Source: Escherichia phage vojen
Direction: 5' to 3' (one strand)
Sequence record: NC_049824.1
DNA: 50,709 nucleotides
In this document: in pieces, positions 295 to 49,861 of the stretch
How positions within the stretch are numbered: position 1 is the first letter of the stretch
Layout: every line of letters begins with the position of its first letter
Made by a program: the position numbers and the translations under genes
Notes under the pieces: generated by a model
What the model saw: the letters and a program-made list of their open reading frames with translations, nothing else
Databases searched by the model: none
What the model was told of the DNA's origin: nothing

Positions 295-570
295 TCATTC
301 ATCATCTTCAAGCGGATCGTAATCATCAACCCCAAAATCAAGCGGGGCATAGTTATCAACCTCAAAGTCAATACATCTTGCCTGTTCATCACAGTTAGAT
401 GTTTCAATCAAATATTCACCGTAATGATCTGGATCATCAACCCTGGTAACAATGACGCGCGTCATGTGTCGCCCGCATCCGTAACGATCTGCAAGGTGAT
501 CTCGCTGTACTCTAAATCCGTTTTTATATGCGCGCTCAAGTGCGTTGCGTAATTCTTCGTGCTTAACCAT
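295..570 (-). CDS. hypothetical protein with acidic C-terminus (91 aa)
   Basis: Start moved to internal ATG (MVKHEEL) preceded by GGAGG; ATG overlaps stop of upstream gene; C-terminal DDYDPLEDDE tail. Confidence 0.5.
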   Translation of the reverse strand: MVKHEELRNALERAYKNGFRVQRDHLADRYGCGRHMTRVIVTRVDDPDHYGEYLIETSNCDEQARCIDFEVDNYAPLDFGVDDYDPLEDDE

Positions 571-4483: not shown

Positions 4484-5034
4484 TAGTTTTGATAATGAAA
4501 AAATACGAATTTGAACTTTGGGGAAGCAAATACCATTTTTCCACGAGCAAGCCGATTGTTGTAGTTGACCTTGACGGCACGTTATCCGATGGAACGCATC
4601 GCTTGCACCTGCTGCCGACAGAAGATTTGCACCTTACAGAAAGCTGGTCTGAGTTCAATAAGGCGGCTGTTGGAGATTCGCCGATTAAGAGCACGGTTGC
4701 AGTGGTTAACGGATTGTGGATGTCAGGATTTGCAATCGTTATCCTGACAGGGCGCAGCGATGAGGTGATGGCTGACACCTGCGACTGGTTAAATTATAAC
4801 GGCATCAAGTACGACGCGTTAATCATGCGCCGCAAGGAAGATAATCGAAAAGACACGATCATCAAAGAGGAAGTCTTGCGAGCTATCGGACTGGAAAACA
4901 TTGTGTGCGCTTTTGATGATTCGCCGAACGTGGTTAAGCACTTCCGCAGCCTGGGAATCACAACCTATCAGGTCACGGAATACGACAAGCCACATAATCA
5001 TATCAAATCGCATGGCGTGGAGGAATTGAAATGA
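4480..5034 (+). CDS. HAD-superfamily phosphatase (polynucleotide 3'-phosphatase / nucleotidase-like)
   Basis: VVVDLDGTL motif (HAD motif I, DxDGT) near the N-terminus; later Asp-rich motifs. Confidence 0.6.
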   Translation: MIVLIMKKYEFELWGSKYHFSTSKPIVVVDLDGTLSDGTHRLHLLPTEDLHLTESWSEFNKAAVGDSPIKSTVAVVNGLWMSGFAIVILTGRSDEVMADTCDWLNYNGIKYDALIMRRKEDNRKDTIIKEEVLRAIGLENIVCAFDDSPNVVKHFRSLGITTYQVTEYDKPHNHIKSHGVEELK

Positions 5035-5192
5035 CCTGGTTACTTTTAATCTTTGTCACAAGTTACAATTCCGCCGCTATTGAATCGCAAGAGTTCCACG
5101 GCGAATCAAGATGCCAGGAAGCACGAAAACAAGTTGTTCTCCACATGTCAGATAGTGGGAAAGATGTAACAGCGCTATGCGTTCGTAAATAG
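5031..5192 (+). CDS. small hypothetical protein with hydrophobic N-terminus (53 aa)
   Basis: ATGA overlap with the upstream stop; GGAGGAA RBS; TAG stop lies inside the next motif copy. Confidence 0.3.
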   Translation: MTWLLLIFVTSYNSAAIESQEFHGESRCQEARKQVVLHMSDSGKDVTALCVRK

Positions 5193-6564: not shown

Positions 6565-6969
6565 ATGTTAGAGCTTAACGACATTCGCGTAGGCACAAAA
6601 TTTCGCGTAACCTGGGTATATGATGAGCGATGCGGCATTCGTAAAGGTGAGATTGTAACTGCTTCCGATCGCTATATCGGATCGTTAAAAGAGTTTAACC
6701 GACCACGCATCAAGAATGGCTATATCATTACTCGGCGACTTGGCTTTGATCATTATTGCGTAGTGGCAACTCAAGGCGTTTTGATTGAGCTTAAGCGAAT
6801 CAGCGATCATCGCGGATGCCATGTTAAGACAATGAAAACACCATTTCAGCGAGCGCGATACGATGCGCGACGTATGCGCCGACTTGCGCGTAATGCGATC
6901 AAGTTCAAAAAGCCTGATAATGTTCTTTACGGCATGTACAAGGGGATTGCGCGAAATGCTGGGAAATAA
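6565..6969 (+). CDS. hypothetical protein (134 aa)
   Basis: Start moved to ATG with AGAGAGGA RBS, downstream of the -10-like hexamer. Confidence 0.5.
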   Translation: MLELNDIRVGTKFRVTWVYDERCGIRKGEIVTASDRYIGSLKEFNRPRIKNGYIITRRLGFDHYCVVATQGVLIELKRISDHRGCHVKTMKTPFQRARYDARRMRRLARNAIKFKKPDNVLYGMYKGIARNAGK

Positions 6970-7068
6970 CAACAACGCAACAAATCCAAAGCCGCCATTT
7001 GATTTTCATGAAATCATGATTGTGTTATTCTTGATTCTCTTAGTTATTTATTCAGTGAGGGCCGCACT

Positions 7069-7332
7069 ATGGTTTTTAACGCATTAAAACGAATCTTTAA
7101 ACCTGAATACCGGATCGTTGCTTGCACAGAATGCAAGATTTATTACCTGCAACGCCGCCGCGTTATTAGTGGCGATTGGGAATATCTGACGGATGATGCT
7201 TTCGGCTTTTGGGCTATGGAGTTCAATAGCTACAGTGAAGCGCGTGAGTACGCTAAAAAGTTGCACAAGTTCCGACCTTACAAGCTGCGTTTGCTGGTTG
7301 TTAAAAAATGCGATGTGTGGGATCACGTATGA
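7069..7332 (+). CDS. hypothetical protein (87 aa)
   Basis: ORF with GAGGG RBS. Confidence 0.5.
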   Translation: MVFNALKRIFKPEYRIVACTECKIYYLQRRRVISGDWEYLTDDAFGFWAMEFNSYSEAREYAKKLHKFRPYKLRLLVVKKCDVWDHV

Positions 7333-7508
7333 AAAGAGTAATTATCATTTTTATTGCCCTTATCGCTGGTTGCTACCTGGCTTATAATTATAGCGGCATT
7401 GTTGAGTCAATCGGCGGGTTGATTATCTTCATGGCTGGCGGGTATGCTGGCTATTGTGATGGATTCGAAAACGGAAAGCGTTACATGCTGACCGGAAAAA
7501 AGAAGTAA
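7329..7508 (+). CDS. small membrane protein / possible lipoprotein (59 aa)
   Basis: ATGA overlap with upstream stop; N-terminal hydrophobic segment with lipobox-like LIAGC. Confidence 0.4.
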   Translation: MKRVIIIFIALIAGCYLAYNYSGIVESIGGLIIFMAGGYAGYCDGFENGKRYMLTGKKK

Positions 7509-30465: not shown

Positions 30466-30492
30466 GGGCTTTCGCCCCTTTATTTTTATTTA
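30466..30492. terminator. Bidirectional intrinsic terminator
   Basis: GGGGC-TTTC-GCCCC hairpin flanked by A-run upstream and T-run downstream, between convergent genes. Confidence 0.8.
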
Positions 30493-30717
30493 CAGACTGC
30501 AATCAGCGTTTTTAAAGTTGTCAATGTTTACCCACTGAAAATTAAACGGATAGCCAGCCTTAACAAGAGTGCGGTCGCCAACTCGTTTTACTCCGAAAAT
30601 AGCAACTGAATACTGCATTCCGCTATTTTCATAAATAGCCGTGCATTCACGTTTAGGCATATTTGCGCACCCAGTCAGGGTTACGGTGGCAATCAAAGCG
30701 GCGATAAATTTTTTCAT
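30490..30717 (-). CDS. small outer-membrane lipoprotein, candidate superinfection-exclusion protein (Cor/Llp-like)
   Basis: Signal peptide with lipobox LTGC; mature ~58 aa with two Cys; GGAGA RBS; sits beside the host-range genes on the opposite strand. Confidence 0.5.
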   Translation of the reverse strand: MKKFIAALIATVTLTGCANMPKRECTAIYENSGMQYSVAIFGVKRVGDRTLVKAGYPFNFQWVNIDNFKNADCSL

Positions 30718-30771
30718 CTTGGTGTCTCCTTAGTTGTTGTTGGTTGCAACTATACACGATCTTGCGGTGTG

Positions 30772-30791
30772 CGTTTAGCAAAAAGTGCTAT
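30772..30791 (-). promoter_or_regulatory. Conserved element, variant (minus-strand reading ATAGCACTTTTTGCTAAACG)
   Basis: Variant motif upstream of the lipoprotein gene with TATAGT at a ~17-bp gap. Confidence 0.5.
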
Positions 30792-30920
30792 TCTTGTTCT
30801 TTTGTTATTCGGTGTTCTTAAATCTGCGGAGGCTTAAATTTAGCTCAAAATGTGAGCAACAATAGAGCGCTATACATACAGATAAATATATATACATACA
30901 TACAAATCAATAAGTTAGTA

Positions 30921-31045
30921 GTATATATATTTATATTTGTTCTTTATTGTTATCTATGTTTTGTGTGATTTTGTGTGTCTGGTGTTTTTTATGTGATTAT
31001 GTATGTGTCAGTGGTTGTGTGTGTCTATATATCTATATCCGGCGC
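30921..31045. repeat. GT-rich low-complexity element, copy B
   Basis: AT-rich tract, then ttgtgtgattttgtgtgtctggtgtttttt...gtggttgtgtgtgtc, then CCGGCGC clamp; parallels 1441-1580. Confidence 0.5.
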
Positions 31046-31161
31046 AAATGTAGGAACAAGAGAACAAAAAGACAACGCGGATATTTATCAATAACTTACA
31101 TGTAAGTTTTGTTATCTAGGTTGGTGAGAACGTTGTTAGAACAGAAAAAACAAAATAACTA

Positions 31162-31189
31162 TTGACTAAACGCATCAAATAGCTACAAT
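31162..31189 (+). promoter_or_regulatory. Sigma70-like promoter for the recombination operon
   Basis: TTGACT (31162-31167), 16-bp spacer, TACAAT (31184-31189), ~30 bp upstream of the exonuclease gene. Confidence 0.5.
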
Positions 31190-31218
31190 GCAGACATACC
31201 AACCAATGAGGGCAAATC

Positions 31219-32280
31219 ATGAATAAGTTTATGGCGTACACCAGCGAAGAAATGAGCAATGAGCTTTATCACGATCCAGAAGCGTGGACGGCTGATTATG
31301 TTAGCGGCTCAAGCCTGGCAGAGATTTACAGCACATGCCCGGCAGCGTGGAAGTTCAAGCCGCGTGACGATAAGAGCAAGGCGCTAGTTTTCGGTACGCA
31401 GTCGCATACCAACTTTGAAAGCAAGGAGCTTTTCGAAAAAACATATCGCCGTGCGCCATCGCCAGAAGACTTTAAGGATCTGATAACTAGTCAAACTGCG
31501 CTTGCCGCAAAACTGAAATCATTTGGCCTGAAAGGTACAACCGGAAAGACTTATCCAGACCTTATCAAAATGTTGGTTGACTGCGGAGAAGACCTTAACG
31601 TCATGTGGTTAATCGACATGATCGCAGAAAGTCAGGCCAGGGCAGATGGGGTTCAGTTAATCGAAGCTAAAGATTACGATGCGTGCGTGGCAATGCGCCA
31701 GGTTCTGGAATCAATACCGGAACATAACGCATGTATGAATAGCAAGACGGCACAACGTGAATTATCGTTGTTCGGTGAAATTAACGGCGTAAAAGTCAAA
31801 GTGCGATGCGATCACGTTGACGTAACAAAGAACGTCACCGCAACGCTGATTGATGGTTACGATGAAAAAGGTCAGCCGATTTGCCGCGATATTATTTATC
31901 CAGAGGCCATTGTGATCACAGACTACAAAACTACAATGAGCGCGAATCCGGCTGAGTTTATGCGCCTGGCTTACAATCACGGCTATTATTTGAAAATGGC
32001 GTTGCAATGTGATTTATTCAGAAAAGCGTATCCAGAAGAAAAGCGACCTATAGTTGTGCGACTGTTAGCGCAAGAGAAGAAAGAGCCTTATTTGCCGTTG
32101 GCTTTCCGCATGAATAGCGAGCAATTGAAGATCGGGCGCATTCAGTACATGAGCGTAATTAACCAGTTTGCCATGTGCCAGCAACATGACGTTTGGCCTT
32201 CGTATTCAAACGGCGAGCCGGAGGTTTGCCTTGATACTCCTGATTGGGTGCGACGCCAGTTTAAGCAATATCTTATTTAA
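31219..32280 (+). CDS. putative recombination exonuclease (PD-(D/E)xK family)
   Basis: Candidate catalytic segments CDHVD and ITDYKT; directly upstream of Erf and SSB. Confidence 0.55.
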   Translation: MNKFMAYTSEEMSNELYHDPEAWTADYVSGSSLAEIYSTCPAAWKFKPRDDKSKALVFGTQSHTNFESKELFEKTYRRAPSPEDFKDLITSQTALAAKLKSFGLKGTTGKTYPDLIKMLVDCGEDLNVMWLIDMIAESQARADGVQLIEAKDYDACVAMRQVLESIPEHNACMNSKTAQRELSLFGEINGVKVKVRCDHVDVTKNVTATLIDGYDEKGQPICRDIIYPEAIVITDYKTTMSANPAEFMRLAYNHGYYLKMALQCDLFRKAYPEEKRPIVVRLLAQEKKEPYLPLAFRMNSEQLKIGRIQYMSVINQFAMCQQHDVWPSYSNGEPEVCLDTPDWVRRQFKQYLI

Positions 32281-39519: not shown

Positions 39520-41565
39520 ATGATTCCAAACATTGAAAAGCAAATATCAGCACTTGGTGAAGCGGTAATTAAATCCATTCAGGAGCGATTCACTGTTGGC
39601 GAGATTGTGCCTTACCCTTACCAGTGCGTTGCATACGCTGAGATCGCAAAGCGTATGAAAAATTATGAGCATCCATTCTTTGTTAAAGCGTCCGTATCGG
39701 CTGGCAAAACATTGATGTTTGCAATGGTTGCTCACCAGTGCCGGAAAATGGGCTTGAAAATGATGGTACTTGCTCGCCAGGCTGAGATTGTGGATCAGGA
39801 TTCTGAAGAGATAACAAATCTTGGTGTGCCGAACTCCATCTATTGTGCAGGACTGAAGACAAAAAGCGCATACTTTCCGATCGTTGTTGGTTCTGAGGGA
39901 ACTGTAGTTAATGGACTGTTTAAAGCGCTTGGCGACTATGTTCCGCACGTTATCGGGATCGACGAGTGTCACCAGGTGGATTGGGAAGACCTTGCCGACG
40001 CAATAGAGAAAGACGAGTCATTTTTACAAATGACAACTAAGAAAGGCGAAAAAGTACCAAATCCAGATTATGACATAACAAAGGGAAGCAGGAACAGAAA
40101 TACAGAGTTCCTGATTGGTGAGGATGGCTTGCCAATGGAGGGAACAGGCCGCACACAATACACTGTCATTATCATGGAAATGATGCGCCGCTGCCGGAAA
40201 ACATATGGTCATGAACTGCGCATATTTGGCATGACTGGATCGGAGTTTCGCGGCGTAGTCCCGATCCTGGTGGAAGACAAAAAACAGAAAGGATTCTGGC
40301 GTGAACAGGTTACTAATATTGACACCAACTACCTGATCAAATTCGGTTCTGTTGTGCCAACAAATTTTGGCGACGTTGGCGATCTAGGGTATGACCTTTC
40401 AGAGTTTGAGGCATCCAGTGAGGATGGCGTTGCAGACTTTGACGCTAAAACGCTTCGCAGGATGGAACAAAAAATTCATGAAGAAGCGACCATGACAAAG
40501 CGCATCATGGCGAAAGTTCACGAGATCTGTAAAAACCGCAACGGCGTACTTGTGACATGTGCAGGAGAAAGGCATTGCAAAGAGGCAGCGGCAGCGTTGC
40601 CACCTGGAACGACTTACAGGATAATTACTGGTAAGACTGGCGACAATCAGCGCAAGGAGTGGTTAAGGGAAGCATACGAAGGGAAAGTAAAATACATCTT
40701 CCAGGTTCAGGCGCTAACAACTGGCGTTAACGTGCCGTTTTGGGATACGTCGGTTATATTGCGTAAGATTGGATCTCTTACGTTGCTGATTCAGCTTTTA
40801 GGACGCGGAATGCGACTTCTTAAGAAATGGCATAAGGAGCAAGGCTTCAAGAAAGATGATCACCTGGTTATGGATTTTTCAGGAACGATGGACGAGTTAG
40901 GTGAGCTTTATTTTGATCCGATACTTGAACAGGCGCAGCATCAGAAGCGATTCAGGAACGGTAAAGATCCGAAGCCTTGTCCTGTTTGTGGAACTCTTAA
41001 CAGCTATTATGCTCGTCGTTGTATGCACGTAGACGAAAACGGCAACAGATGCGAGTGGTTCTTTAAATTCAGGACATGTGATGATCAGATTGACCCACGC
41101 ACTAAAAAGATTATTCAGCGCGGCTGTGGAACTAAAAATGATATTGCGGCCAGGGTATGCAGACATTGCGACATGTCATTGATTGACCCTAACGAGAAGT
41201 TAAGCGGAAAGCACTACACAAAAAACGACTGGTTTCAGGTGCAATCTTTCTCGGTTGACATGACGAAAAACCAGAAAGGGATAATATTTAATTATGAGCT
41301 TTCCGATGGCATAGACACTTTCAGAGCGCGTGAAATATTTTTCCCTGAATCAGAAAGCCAAATTTGTCGCGCAAAATGGAGAAATGTTGCTCTTAAGCAC
41401 ATACCGGATCGCCGTATTGCTGGCATGGTGGCGAGCTATCGTAATGCACGTAAAATCATGCAATATGTGAATCACATCATGCCGCCATCGCGTGTTACTC
41501 ACAGAAAGACTAGCAAGAGTGAAGATAATTTGTACAAGAAGGACTTTAATTATGGCAATGACTGA
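39520..41565 (+). CDS. SF2 DNA helicase with C-terminal zinc-ribbon motifs
   Basis: Walker A SAGKT; DExH-like GIDECHQ; C-terminal CPVCG...RRC and CGTKN...CRHC; start moved from in-motif TTG to ATG. Confidence 0.65.
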   Translation: MIPNIEKQISALGEAVIKSIQERFTVGEIVPYPYQCVAYAEIAKRMKNYEHPFFVKASVSAGKTLMFAMVAHQCRKMGLKMMVLARQAEIVDQDSEEITNLGVPNSIYCAGLKTKSAYFPIVVGSEGTVVNGLFKALGDYVPHVIGIDECHQVDWEDLADAIEKDESFLQMTTKKGEKVPNPDYDITKGSRNRNTEFLIGEDGLPMEGTGRTQYTVIIMEMMRRCRKTYGHELRIFGMTGSEFRGVVPILVEDKKQKGFWREQVTNIDTNYLIKFGSVVPTNFGDVGDLGYDLSEFEASSEDGVADFDAKTLRRMEQKIHEEATMTKRIMAKVHEICKNRNGVLVTCAGERHCKEAAAALPPGTTYRIITGKTGDNQRKEWLREAYEGKVKYIFQVQALTTGVNVPFWDTSVILRKIGSLTLLIQLLGRGMRLLKKWHKEQGFKKDDHLVMDFSGTMDELGELYFDPILEQAQHQKRFRNGKDPKPCPVCGTLNSYYARRCMHVDENGNRCEWFFKFRTCDDQIDPRTKKIIQRGCGTKNDIAARVCRHCDMSLIDPNEKLSGKHYTKNDWFQVQSFSVDMTKNQKGIIFNYELSDGIDTFRAREIFFPESESQICRAKWRNVALKHIPDRRIAGMVASYRNARKIMQYVNHIMPPSRVTHRKTSKSEDNLYKKDFNYGND

Positions 41566-43063: not shown

Positions 43064-43243
43064 TGGTAGTATACAGCAAGAAAGCATTTGACCAGGCGCA
43101 ACAAACAGCACGCGAGGCGGTAAAAGGTGGAACGAAAAACAATATGCAGCTTGATTGGGGAGCGGCAATGATTCTGCTTCGCGTTGCATATGGTCACTAC
43201 CCATTAGGATTTGCGGAGGCATATTATAAGCATGAAGGTTGAA
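43064..43243 (+). CDS. small hypothetical protein (59 aa)
   Basis: ORF below the track cutoff with GAGGAAA RBS downstream of a motif copy. Confidence 0.35.
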
Positions 43244-43474
43244 CAAGGAAGGCAGGCCGTATGGGATCACGCAAAGGAATGCGGGATCGCAGAAGACATA
43301 GCCAGGATAGCGAAATATTTTGATATTGCTGACATAAGCATTATCAGCGGCGACAAAATGACATTTCTCAATGAGCGACCGCGCAAGATGCATCGCGTAC
43401 CAGCAATACCAACAAAGATTGATTTCAAAGAGGCTATGGCGAAAATTCGCGAGCCGCGCAAATACTACAAATGA
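43232..43474 (+). CDS. hypothetical protein (80 aa)
   Basis: ORF with GGAGG upstream. Confidence 0.45.
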   Translation: MKVEQGRQAVWDHAKECGIAEDIARIAKYFDIADISIISGDKMTFLNERPRKMHRVPAIPTKIDFKEAMAKIREPRKYYK

Positions 43475-43572
43475 GGATTATTATCATGTGGCGTTTGTTA
43501 CTTTTGCCCTTACCTGTTATGATGGCGATCTCTATTGTATATGTTGTCATAATGAGATAAGGAGAATTTTTG

Positions 43573-44688
43573 ATGAAGCAAATCAAAATCACAGATGAAC
43601 AATTTATCAATGAGCGCAAGCAGGGAAAGACATATAAGCAGATCGCTAATGAGTATGGTATGAACGTTCGCAGCATTGAGCGACGCGCGGCACGATTAGC
43701 AAAGCAAGGTAAAGTTACAACCATCGGATCACCTGGTTTTGGTGTTACTGGAGAATCAAAGCTAATTGATAAAGATGGCAATGTGGTTATGACATGGATT
43801 AAGACAAGTAAGGACCGCGAACAGTTAGAAGCATTAATGCAGGCCGCTATGGATGCATTTAGCGAAGAAGTTCCTCGACTTGATCCACAGCCAGAATCAC
43901 AAAAGGATTATAGCGAGACGTTATCACTGTATCCGATCTTTGACATGCACTTGGGAGCAATGGCGCATAAGCATGAATGCGGCGAGAATTGGGATACAGC
44001 AACAGCAGAGCGCGTAATGAATAATTTCATTGATTATTCCATCCAGTGCGCGCCGGATAGTGAAAAGGCTGTTTTACTGATTGGTGGTGACATGCTTCAC
44101 AGCGACGGACTGGAGGCGGTGACACCTGCAAGCGGTCACGTATTGGATCAAGATAGTCGATATGCAAAACTTGTTTATGTTGCCATCCGGTCAGTGCGTC
44201 GAGCAATTACAAAGCTGTTATCAAAACACAAAAACGTCGAGATTCAGATCATTGAAGGCAACCACGACCAAAGCGGCATGATCTGGTTGCGCGCAGCAAT
44301 GGCGGCAGCATATGAGAATGAGCCGCGAGTGCATGTTGATGTTTCTCCGCGAGTAGTTCATCACACACAGTATGGCAAAACATTCCTGGCATACCATCAC
44401 GGGCACACTATCCGCAAGCCTGAAACATTGCTCATGATGTGCGCGGCAGACTGGCGCGAAGACTTCGGCAATTCAAAAATGATGTATGCTCACGTAGGGC
44501 ATTGGCATCATCAAACAGTAACCGAAACAAGCCTGGGAATTGTTGAAGTGCATAGCACTATGGCGGCAAAAGATGCATATGCGGCGCGCGGTGGATGGCG
44601 TTCTCGCCGCCGTGCGGCTGTTATTGTTTATGATAAAGAATACGGAGAAGTGGGGCGATTTATGCATTATCCAGAAATGGCTGGTTGA
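43573..44688 (+). CDS. metallophosphoesterase with N-terminal HTH-like segment
   Basis: Calcineurin-like motifs DMH, GGDMLH, GNHD and HWHH; N-terminal TYKQIANEYGMNVRSIERRAARL; AAGGAG RBS. Confidence 0.55.
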   Translation: MKQIKITDEQFINERKQGKTYKQIANEYGMNVRSIERRAARLAKQGKVTTIGSPGFGVTGESKLIDKDGNVVMTWIKTSKDREQLEALMQAAMDAFSEEVPRLDPQPESQKDYSETLSLYPIFDMHLGAMAHKHECGENWDTATAERVMNNFIDYSIQCAPDSEKAVLLIGGDMLHSDGLEAVTPASGHVLDQDSRYAKLVYVAIRSVRRAITKLLSKHKNVEIQIIEGNHDQSGMIWLRAAMAAAYENEPRVHVDVSPRVVHHTQYGKTFLAYHHGHTIRKPETLLMMCAADWREDFGNSKMMYAHVGHWHHQTVTETSLGIVEVHSTMAAKDAYAARGGWRSRRRAAVIVYDKEYGEVGRFMHYPEMAG

Positions 44689-49507: not shown

Positions 49508-49732
49508 TCAAAACGGAAAGCATCGCGGGCAGTTAGGATCAAAATTGCAGCCGCAATCATTGACAATCATAGTTGGATCTGCAAATGCAGCGCCGCATTC
49601 ATGATCCATATCCATTTCACCCAGCGCATCATCAAGCGTCCTGATCTTATATGCAACTTCAAGCGCTGTCTCTTTATTTAATCCGGCATCTTCAGCCATT
49701 TGCAGGCGCTCAAAAAATCCGTCCTGACTCAT
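49508..49732 (-). CDS. small Cys-rich protein (74 aa)
   Basis: Start moved to ATG with AAGGAG RBS; C-terminal CGC...CPRC cluster. Confidence 0.45.
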   Translation of the reverse strand: MSQDGFFERLQMAEDAGLNKETALEVAYKIRTLDDALGEMDMDHECGAAFADPTMIVNDCGCNFDPNCPRCFPF

Positions 49733-49861
49733 TTCATAAACTCCTTGATAGCAAACAGAATAATAGCAAGACCAGCAGTGACAACCCAAAGACCAATAAG
49801 GCCAATCATCACTCCCAATAAAATATCAAGAAATTTCATCATTATTATCACCTTTATTTAA

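Follow-up and report, generated by a model that had tools for sequence, protein, structure and literature searches.

We found that a 24-codon open reading frame (ORF A), lying immediately before a phosphoesterase gene, is a conserved and selected reading frame within a replication/recombination operon (helicase, Dam methylase, and phosphoesterase), where it is served by its own ribosome-binding site (RBS) or by a stop-start overlap. Judged from comparative sequence analysis, ORF A is very probably a real translated gene. We read its putative product as an accessory inner-membrane micropeptide that consists of a transmembrane (TM) segment only and would act through a specific intramembrane contact, and we assign this reading a probability of roughly 0.55. 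The analysis covered the window, i.e., the whole stretch of 50,709 nucleotides, and followed an earlier note that had singled out four short ORFs (here A to D) as single-TM peptides with plausible RBSs and start-stop overlaps with their neighbors. The four ORFs are present at the coordinates given below with the translations reported for them, and RBSs and/or stop-start overlaps accompany them. They are real small genes in that they are conserved in related phages, accumulate coding-type substitutions, and lie on the coding strand within operons that are densely packed. The single-TM description holds for ORFs A, B, and C, which are essentially one TM helix each, but not for ORF D, in which a short hydrophobic N-terminus is followed by a 35-residue polar domain.

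By its similarity to sequenced phages, the window is a Hanrivervirus genome, T1-like and belonging to the Drexlerviridae. Its segment 42000-45000 shares 92-97% nucleotide identity with the Hanrivervirus phages (Drexlerviridae, Tempevirinae) SFP17, phiE31-2, egaa, pSf-1, and JakobBernoulli, and the surroundings of ORFs B, C, and D match the same group. Genes on the + strand run in the order helicase, VRR-NUC, Dam methylase, three small hypothetical genes, phosphoesterase, holin, endolysin, and spanin. ORF A (43486..43560, + strand) occupies the 98-nt "intergenic" gap before the phosphoesterase and comprises 24 codons and a TAA stop. Its translation, MWRLLLLPLPVMMAISIVYVVIMR, contains one TM helix with Arg3 on the N-terminal side and Arg24 at the C-terminus (Kyte-Doolittle mean, 1.8; best 17-residue window, 2.47). 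A Shine-Dalgarno-like GAGG (43473..43476, +) is located 9 nt 5' of the ATG at 43486. The upstream gene (43232..43474, +) encodes a hypothetical protein of 80 aa that gave no Pfam match, and its TGA stop overlaps, as ATGA, an alternative in-frame ATG that would add an optional N-terminal extension, MRIII (43471..43485, +), for a product of 29 aa. At the other end, the ORF A stop (43558..43560) overlaps the AAGGAG (43559..43564, +) that serves as RBS for the phosphoesterase gene (43573..44688, +), located directly 3'. The latter gene, also called "DNA repair exonuclease," encodes an N-terminal HTH. Its product gave a weak Pfam match to HTH_28 and no metallophosphatase Pfam match at E<=0.01; in phage NPat it is annotated as "sigma-70 region 4 domain," and homologues occur in about 2000 phage records from several families.

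Short hydrophobic ORFs are common by chance in the window: across six frames, 46 distinct ORFs of 20-60 aa carry a TM-like segment, and 17 of these 46 are not contained in large ORFs and are found mainly in two non-coding gaps. The case for ORF A therefore rests on conservation. We gathered orthologous loci with the phosphoesterase protein as an anchor, which yielded 80 IMG/VR loci whose protein identity ranges from 100% to 60%. In all 37 Drexlerviridae-type loci except two with disrupted copies (L037 and L042), the phosphoesterase is directly preceded by a hydrophobic ORF of 21-27 codons, and a counterpart is present in every Drexlerviridae lineage sampled, namely, Tempevirinae, T1 (Tunavirinae), Braunvirinae, Rogunavirinae, and Webervirus. 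In phage T1, the counterpart (40740..40811) encodes MKLYFAVVLTPLISFSVMYFIIM and starts at an ATGA overlap with ST17; others were found in TLS, Rogunavirus AHP42, Webervirus NPat, Braunvirinae 12210I and Rao1, and Tlsvirus LL5, SorkZaugg, and U136B. Phosphoesterase identity goes down to about 55% among the phages carrying ORF A. The family is recognizable both by position (21-27 codons on the coding strand, adjoining the phosphoesterase or with only a homing endonuclease between them) and by a signature that combines a basic or aromatic residue at 2-3, Pro near position 10, a small residue near position 14, (M/V)-Y at positions 18-19, and (V/I)-M at positions 22-23. ORF A of the window has this position and these residues (R3, P8/P10, A14, V18-Y19, and I22-M23). 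Outside the Drexlerviridae, ORF A is absent from the phosphoesterase-bearing mEp021 group (temperate; L044-L079) and from the vicinity of the phosphoesterase homologues of Dhillonvirus Gluttony, Jerseyvirus, a Gorganvirus, and Klebsiella phage RCIP0054.

This distribution bears on whether ORF A is a gene at all. It could instead be a chance frame in a T-rich spacer, or a conserved regulatory element at the DNA or RNA level, for instance a promoter; the abundance of chance hydrophobic ORFs would favor this, as would a weak sigma-70-like match inside ORF A, a promoter recorded there in AHP42, and the fact that most annotators left the gap empty. We regard such an explanation as highly improbable, since 15 divergent lineages all have the open frame, its start and stop being placed alike throughout, and shuffled ORF A sequences of each lineage remain open only 23-53% of the time; the lineages share a phylogeny, so that these counts and the product of the open-frame odds overstate independence and significance. 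Substitutions moreover follow a three-base periodicity, and the nucleotide sequence is poorly conserved while the properties of the peptide are kept. A promoter or terminator was rejected as an explanation, as the one weak sigma-70-like match inside ORF A is set in a region with fewer promoter-like matches than its shuffles (2 versus 5.1). An RNA element was likewise rejected, given that the fold of ORF A is no better than that of shuffles (z-score, -0.77), that no structure is common to the lineages, and that an Rfam scan of the window returned no match. On the opposite strand of ORF A, nothing is conserved and the reverse frames contain stops.

Selection at the peptide level was apparent from the alignment of ORF A peptides, which is gapless over 22 columns (n=17). 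Tyr19 is found in 17/17 peptides, a small residue at position 14 in 15/17, Met23 in 14/17, Pro10 in 13/17, and Met18 in 12/17, the remaining positions being hydrophobic, and the conserved Pro and Tyr are encoded by alternative codons between lineages. Entropy at codon positions 1, 2, and 3 amounts to 1.12, 0.72, and 1.43 bits, respectively; the third position is more variable than the second in 20 of the 22 columns (Wilcoxon p=1e-4), and T accounts for 57% of second positions. Because synonymous sites are saturated (pS about 0.67), the uncorrected pooled pN/pS is as high as 0.62. For the least saturated pair, the window and L012, pN is 0.24 and pS 0.66, corresponding to a Jukes-Cantor dN/dS of about 0.18, and between near-identical Hanriverviruses, ORF A has four synonymous changes and two conservative ones (R24K and A14V; binomial p=0.03). 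ORF A nevertheless evolves far faster than its neighbor, showing about 54% identity where the phosphoesterase shows about 86%. In a helical-face test, the conserved positions did not fall significantly on one face (permutation p=0.5).

The gene upstream of ORF A changes between lineages while ORF A stays, and nearly all lineages have either a Shine-Dalgarno-like motif or an ATGA, TGATG, or GTGA stop-start overlap before it. In most lineages, its end reads TAAGGAG or TAAGAGG, which embeds the stop in the sequence preceding the phosphoesterase start, and in the window, a hairpin pairs part of ORF A with the downstream RBS. The frame might accordingly be maintained so that terminating ribosomes load onto or unmask the phosphoesterase start, with the peptide as a by-product. 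We consider this explanation improbable: the hairpin is absent from other lineages and folds no better than shuffles, constraint acts on the amino acids of the peptide, Citrobacter phage CF1 DK-2017 is viable despite a nonsense codon at position 3, and ORF A is still intact in TLS-type genomes, where it is parted from the phosphoesterase by an HNH homing endonuclease gene. An HNH gene is inserted 5' of ORF A in LL5, SorkZaugg, and CF1 (with the frame kept in LL5 and SorkZaugg), and a 68-nt spacer precedes ORF A in AHP42, where it is also kept. Retention of ORF A despite these insertions and this spacer argues against a pure coupling device as well as against a frameshift extension of the upstream protein. 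A programmed -1 frameshift joining the upstream protein to the TM segment was rejected on its own account: although the frames are compatible in the window, a slippery site is lacking, and other lineages do not preserve the layout, given an in-frame stop in L018, the gap in AHP42, and a different upstream gene in T1. The borders of ORF A serve as HNH insertion points, downstream in TLS and upstream in L036/L037, L135, and L136 (LL5, CF1, and SorkZaugg), and the TLS insertion (L029/L030, 1025..1497) alters the ORF A C-terminus to ...VMGLS.

Disruption of the frame in close relatives had been named in the earlier note as a finding that would count against these genes. We looked for it and found ORF A disrupted in 2 of about 50 genomes, one of which is a single base away from an intact sibling, so that ORF A withstood this check. 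In CF1 DK-2017 (L037, KY694971; 1414..1488), codon 3 reads TAA in place of TAC, and this is the sole base that distinguishes the phage from SorkZaugg (L136) across 801 nt; it represents either a natural knockout or a sequencing error. The second case is an STSR3-like locus (L042, 1172..1472; 99.8% identity over 601 nt to Salmonella virus STSR3) with a 1-nt frameshift in ORF A. Here, the last ~37 codons of the upstream gene are tandemly duplicated and the ORF A motif MYAVIMS is readable in the other frame; duplication and frameshift may together be an assembly problem. If neither disruption is an error, plaques can form without the gene, and on the strength of these isolates, ORF A is probably an accessory fitness gene rather than an essential one. 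The rarity and recency of the disruptions fit purifying selection on such an accessory gene.

Conservation also decides between the two possible starts. The MRIII extension or the upstream in-frame ATG is missing in Tempevirinae of the L018 type, L025, L031, L032, and L040, and in T1, TLS-like phages, and Braunvirinae, ORF A starts directly at the overlap ATG, with the Pro equally far from the start. Conservation does not reach into the extension and therefore places the conserved start at 43486, which agrees with the 24-aa call made originally and speaks against the 29-aa form found in three GenBank records, i.e., those of JLBYU09 (JLBYU09_75), ESh4 (URY10757.1), and vB_Eco-B1.3, where the start is placed 5 codons 5' of the conserved one. 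This longer form, which is occasionally called by PHANOTATE and for which an exact look-up returned a single match (phage ESh4), probably has the wrong start; it may be made as well in this phage.

The suggestion that such ORFs are missed by annotation proved right for ORF A, which is left unannotated in 34 of the 37 annotated Hanrivervirus records (40 matches in all) and in the T1 RefSeq, but it did not extend to ORFs B, C, and D, which are routinely annotated as hypothetical proteins. ORF A is unannotated in AHP42, NPat, 12210I, Rao1, LL5, SorkZaugg, and U136B as well. In the AHP42 RefSeq (L127, NC_024793), 427..464 is recorded as a sigma-70 promoter with a spacer of 26 nt and the remark "with 3 bp mismatch"; this feature lies over the ORF A counterpart (418..486) and is probably a misread coding sequence. 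Pfam and PHROG scans of ORF A returned no family, and 19 members of the ORF A family were likewise without meaningful match; our literature search found nothing on ORF A and no Ribo-seq, MS, or proteomics of T1-like phages. ORF A is best described as a new, Drexlerviridae-specific family of a well-known kind, that of small membrane proteins encoded by phages and bacteria, although a broader distribution or a characterized relative may have escaped these scans.

T1-like phages are among the commonest coliphage and Klebsiella phage isolates and are used in therapy cocktails and defense-system screens. What makes ORF A noteworthy is that all Drexlerviridae share it, the classical phage T1 included, and that it is almost never annotated. 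Annotation pipelines with a 30-codon floor always miss it, and the omission extends to the T1 reference and to carefully curated genomes that list RBSs. A gene found in essentially all T1-like phages yet left unannotated is invisible to pangenome, essentiality, and host-interaction studies.

How the ORF A product might act can be outlined from its composition. Translation would yield a peptide of some 24 residues, practically a single TM helix, with its N-terminal Arg/Lys expected to be cytoplasmic according to the positive-inside rule, a kink at Pro10, and Tyr19 near the periplasmic interface. At 24 aa, the peptide is shorter than the ribosome tunnel and would be released before leaving it, so that we infer post-translational insertion into the inner membrane. 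YohP, a 27-aa Escherichia coli protein, is inserted post-translationally via SRP and YidC or SecYEG (PMC7549839). As ORF A has no extramembrane domain, its action would be confined to the bilayer, where the helix would contact a conserved inner-membrane partner, of host or phage origin, and not cause bulk membrane damage. A specific helix-helix contact is favored on account of the invariant Tyr and the near-invariant Pro and Met, and it is these invariant residues on which the preference is built. The resulting fitness role could plausibly be host-membrane modulation or the exclusion of competing phages, the kinds of role that the earlier note had suggested. Going one step further, it is conceivable, and we propose it tentatively, that ORF A is a family-wide TM-only effector whose Pro10/Tyr19 helix binds an inner-membrane machine conserved in enterobacteria, candidate targets being a siphophage DNA-entry component or an energy-coupling complex. 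If this were true, no smaller phage protein for host takeover or exclusion would be known, and ORF A could serve as a natural "traptamer"-like probe of that machine. The peptide is a tractable one, being easily synthesized and mutated. Should it have a specific inner-membrane target, that would also indicate an infection or competition step common to the whole family.

Two other ways of acting have to be weighed against this specific contact. The peptide could be non-specifically membrane active, self-associating and lowering the proton-motive force so as to aid host shut-off or infection timing with no dedicated partner. Its size and composition fit the class of peptides of 19-30 aa that are nearly all hydrophobic with short charged ends, in which YohP (27 aa) lowers membrane potential and fluidity (PMC12719787) and many small type I toxins depolarize the inner membrane (PMC12648545). 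We nonetheless find this account doubtful, because the conservation of Tyr19, Pro10, Met18, and Met23 across divergent lineages exceeds what bulk hydrophobicity needs, neither an antisense RNA nor an antitoxin-like element could be discerned, an Rfam scan gave no match, and the gene sits in an ordinary operon without sign of tight repression.

The second possibility, a specific version of the partner model, is superinfection exclusion at the inner membrane, in which ORF A would block genome entry of related siphophages via an inner-membrane component or the tape-measure channel. Jerseyvirus SETP3 carries an Imm_superinfect gene (PF14373; its gp23 scored E=2e-15 as our positive control) in the same slot 5' of its phosphoesterase homologue; ORF A is family-wide, whereas the outer-membrane exclusion lipoprotein Cor is receptor specific; and ORF A appears dispensable in the two isolates with disrupted copies. 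The argument is one of positional analogy, however: ORF A has no similarity to PF14373 and no extramembrane domain, and nothing comparable occurs in the phosphoesterase loci of Dhillonvirus, the mEp021 group, or Gorganvirus, so we hold this mode of action to be rather unlikely. PF14373 gave no match for ORFs A, B, and C at E<=1, nor for the 19 ORF A family members at E<=10. The SETP3 Imm_superinfect gene itself (L129, 247..426) is a positional analogue of ORF A from an unrelated family.

A holin or antiholin was rejected as a role for ORF A, which is without a C-terminal tail and is separated from the holin by the phosphoesterase and a terminator-like site. A link to the lysis cassette was also rejected, as the genes following the phosphoesterase vary by genus; in NPat and Rao1, polynucleotide kinase and not the lysis cassette comes next.

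The best reading of ORFs B and C is that they are putative single-TM accessory micropeptides analogous to ORF A. ORF B (49729..49839/49842, - strand) encodes 36-37 aa, (M)MKFLDILLGVMIGLIGLWVVTAGLAIILFAIKEFMK, with a single TM helix; AAGGTG lies 7 nt 5' of its ATG, a terminator-like hairpin is located upstream, and its TGA overlaps the ATG of the next gene (ATGA). It is conserved in L111-L117 with a pooled pN/pS of 0.61 and is an annotated CDS in vB_Eco-B1.3. ORF C (6956..7087, +) encodes 43 aa, in which a polar N-terminus with PPFDFH precedes one TM helix and a C-terminal R..LW, both motifs being conserved, and its ends overlap the neighboring genes, by 14 nt upstream and 19 nt downstream. It is conserved in 12 loci (pN/pS, 0.47) and corresponds to pSf-1 gp49 and JLBYU09_20; in Shigella phage 2019SD1, it is frameshifted (L095, 5890..6008). 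A large-database search with ORF C returned only two close clusters, and a weak match to T1 ST67 (E=0.05, small database) has neighbors that are not homologous. Pfam and PHROG scans of ORFs B and C gave nothing meaningful. The name "FeoB-associated Cys-rich membrane protein" given to ORF C in JLBYU09 and in a MAG record was rejected, as the peptide has no Cys and no Pfam match at E<=1, and the name looks like an annotation artifact.

ORF D (5031..5192, +; 53 aa) has GGAGGA 7 nt upstream and shares an ATGA overlap with the stop of the polynucleotide kinase gene. A hydrophobic stretch of ~15 residues at the N-terminus is followed by a polar two-Cys domain of 35 residues, which makes it look like a small secreted, exported, or anchored two-Cys protein. 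It matches phrog_5579 (PHROG 5579; E=3.1e-9), with residues 1-53 aligned to positions 2-52 of the 52-position profile, corresponds to pSf-1 gp43, and belongs to a cluster found on >100 contigs, in which one UniRef entry is named "Secreted protein"; its pooled pN/pS is 0.20. The JLBYU09 copy (L004, 832..1042) carries an internal duplication with a frame change. Small ORFs 5' of polynucleotide kinase in two other loci (L091, 2535..2627; L101, 2389..2502) show the same layout as ORF D, with a hydrophobic N-terminus and then E-F/M-x-S-x-x-x-C-x-E-A-R, and from this resemblance, ORF D may be one member of a small family with multiple copies in these genomes.

Further small envelope proteins are encoded in the window. 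An ORF at 7308..7508 (+; alternatively from the ATG at 7329), which was not on the original list, encodes 59-66 aa with the lipobox LIAGC followed by a Gly-rich hydrophobic stretch and is hypothetical in relatives. A 75-aa lipoprotein, MKKFIAALIATVTLTGC..., is encoded at 30490..30717 (-), at the position of the T1 Cor exclusion protein. The T-rich non-coding gap of ~500 nt beside this gene (30717..31219) is full of chance hydrophobic ORFs.

The closest relatives of these ORFs with an annotation are identical or near-identical and all hypothetical, namely, pSf-1 gp43 (ORF D) and gp49 (ORF C), the 37-aa CDS of vB_Eco-B1.3 (ORF B), and JLBYU09_75 and ESh4 URY10757.1 (ORF A). SETP3 Imm_superinfect (PF14373) resembles ORF A as a small phage membrane protein encoded directly 5' of a phosphoesterase homologue but differs in having 59 aa and two TM helices and in belonging to a different family. 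The type I toxins IbsC, ShoB, TisB, and DinQ are hydrophobic inner-membrane peptides of 19-29 aa, several of which depolarize the membrane (PMC12648545), and ORF A, judging by its composition, would be a small hydrophobic inner-membrane peptide of this sort. Unlike them, however, ORF A is one gene of a polycistronic phage operon, in which an ordinary RBS or translational coupling serves it, and it has no evident antisense RNA antitoxin (no Rfam match) and no processing-dependent mRNA. YohP-type proteins of E. coli (27-33 aa, single TM) are like ORF A in length, hydrophobicity, charged ends, and expected post-translational insertion (PMC7549839, PMC12719787). They share no sequence similarity with ORF A, which is phage encoded, confined to the Drexlerviridae, and marked by an invariant Tyr and a conserved Pro. 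KdpF, CydX, PmrR, and MgtR are single-helix regulatory TM micropeptides that act by helix-helix contact with a larger membrane protein. Although ORF A has no sequence similarity to regulatory micropeptides of this kind and no Pfam match, the single-helix, partner-binding mode of KdpF, CydX, AcrZ, MgrB, PmrR, and MgtR is the one that we favor for its putative action.
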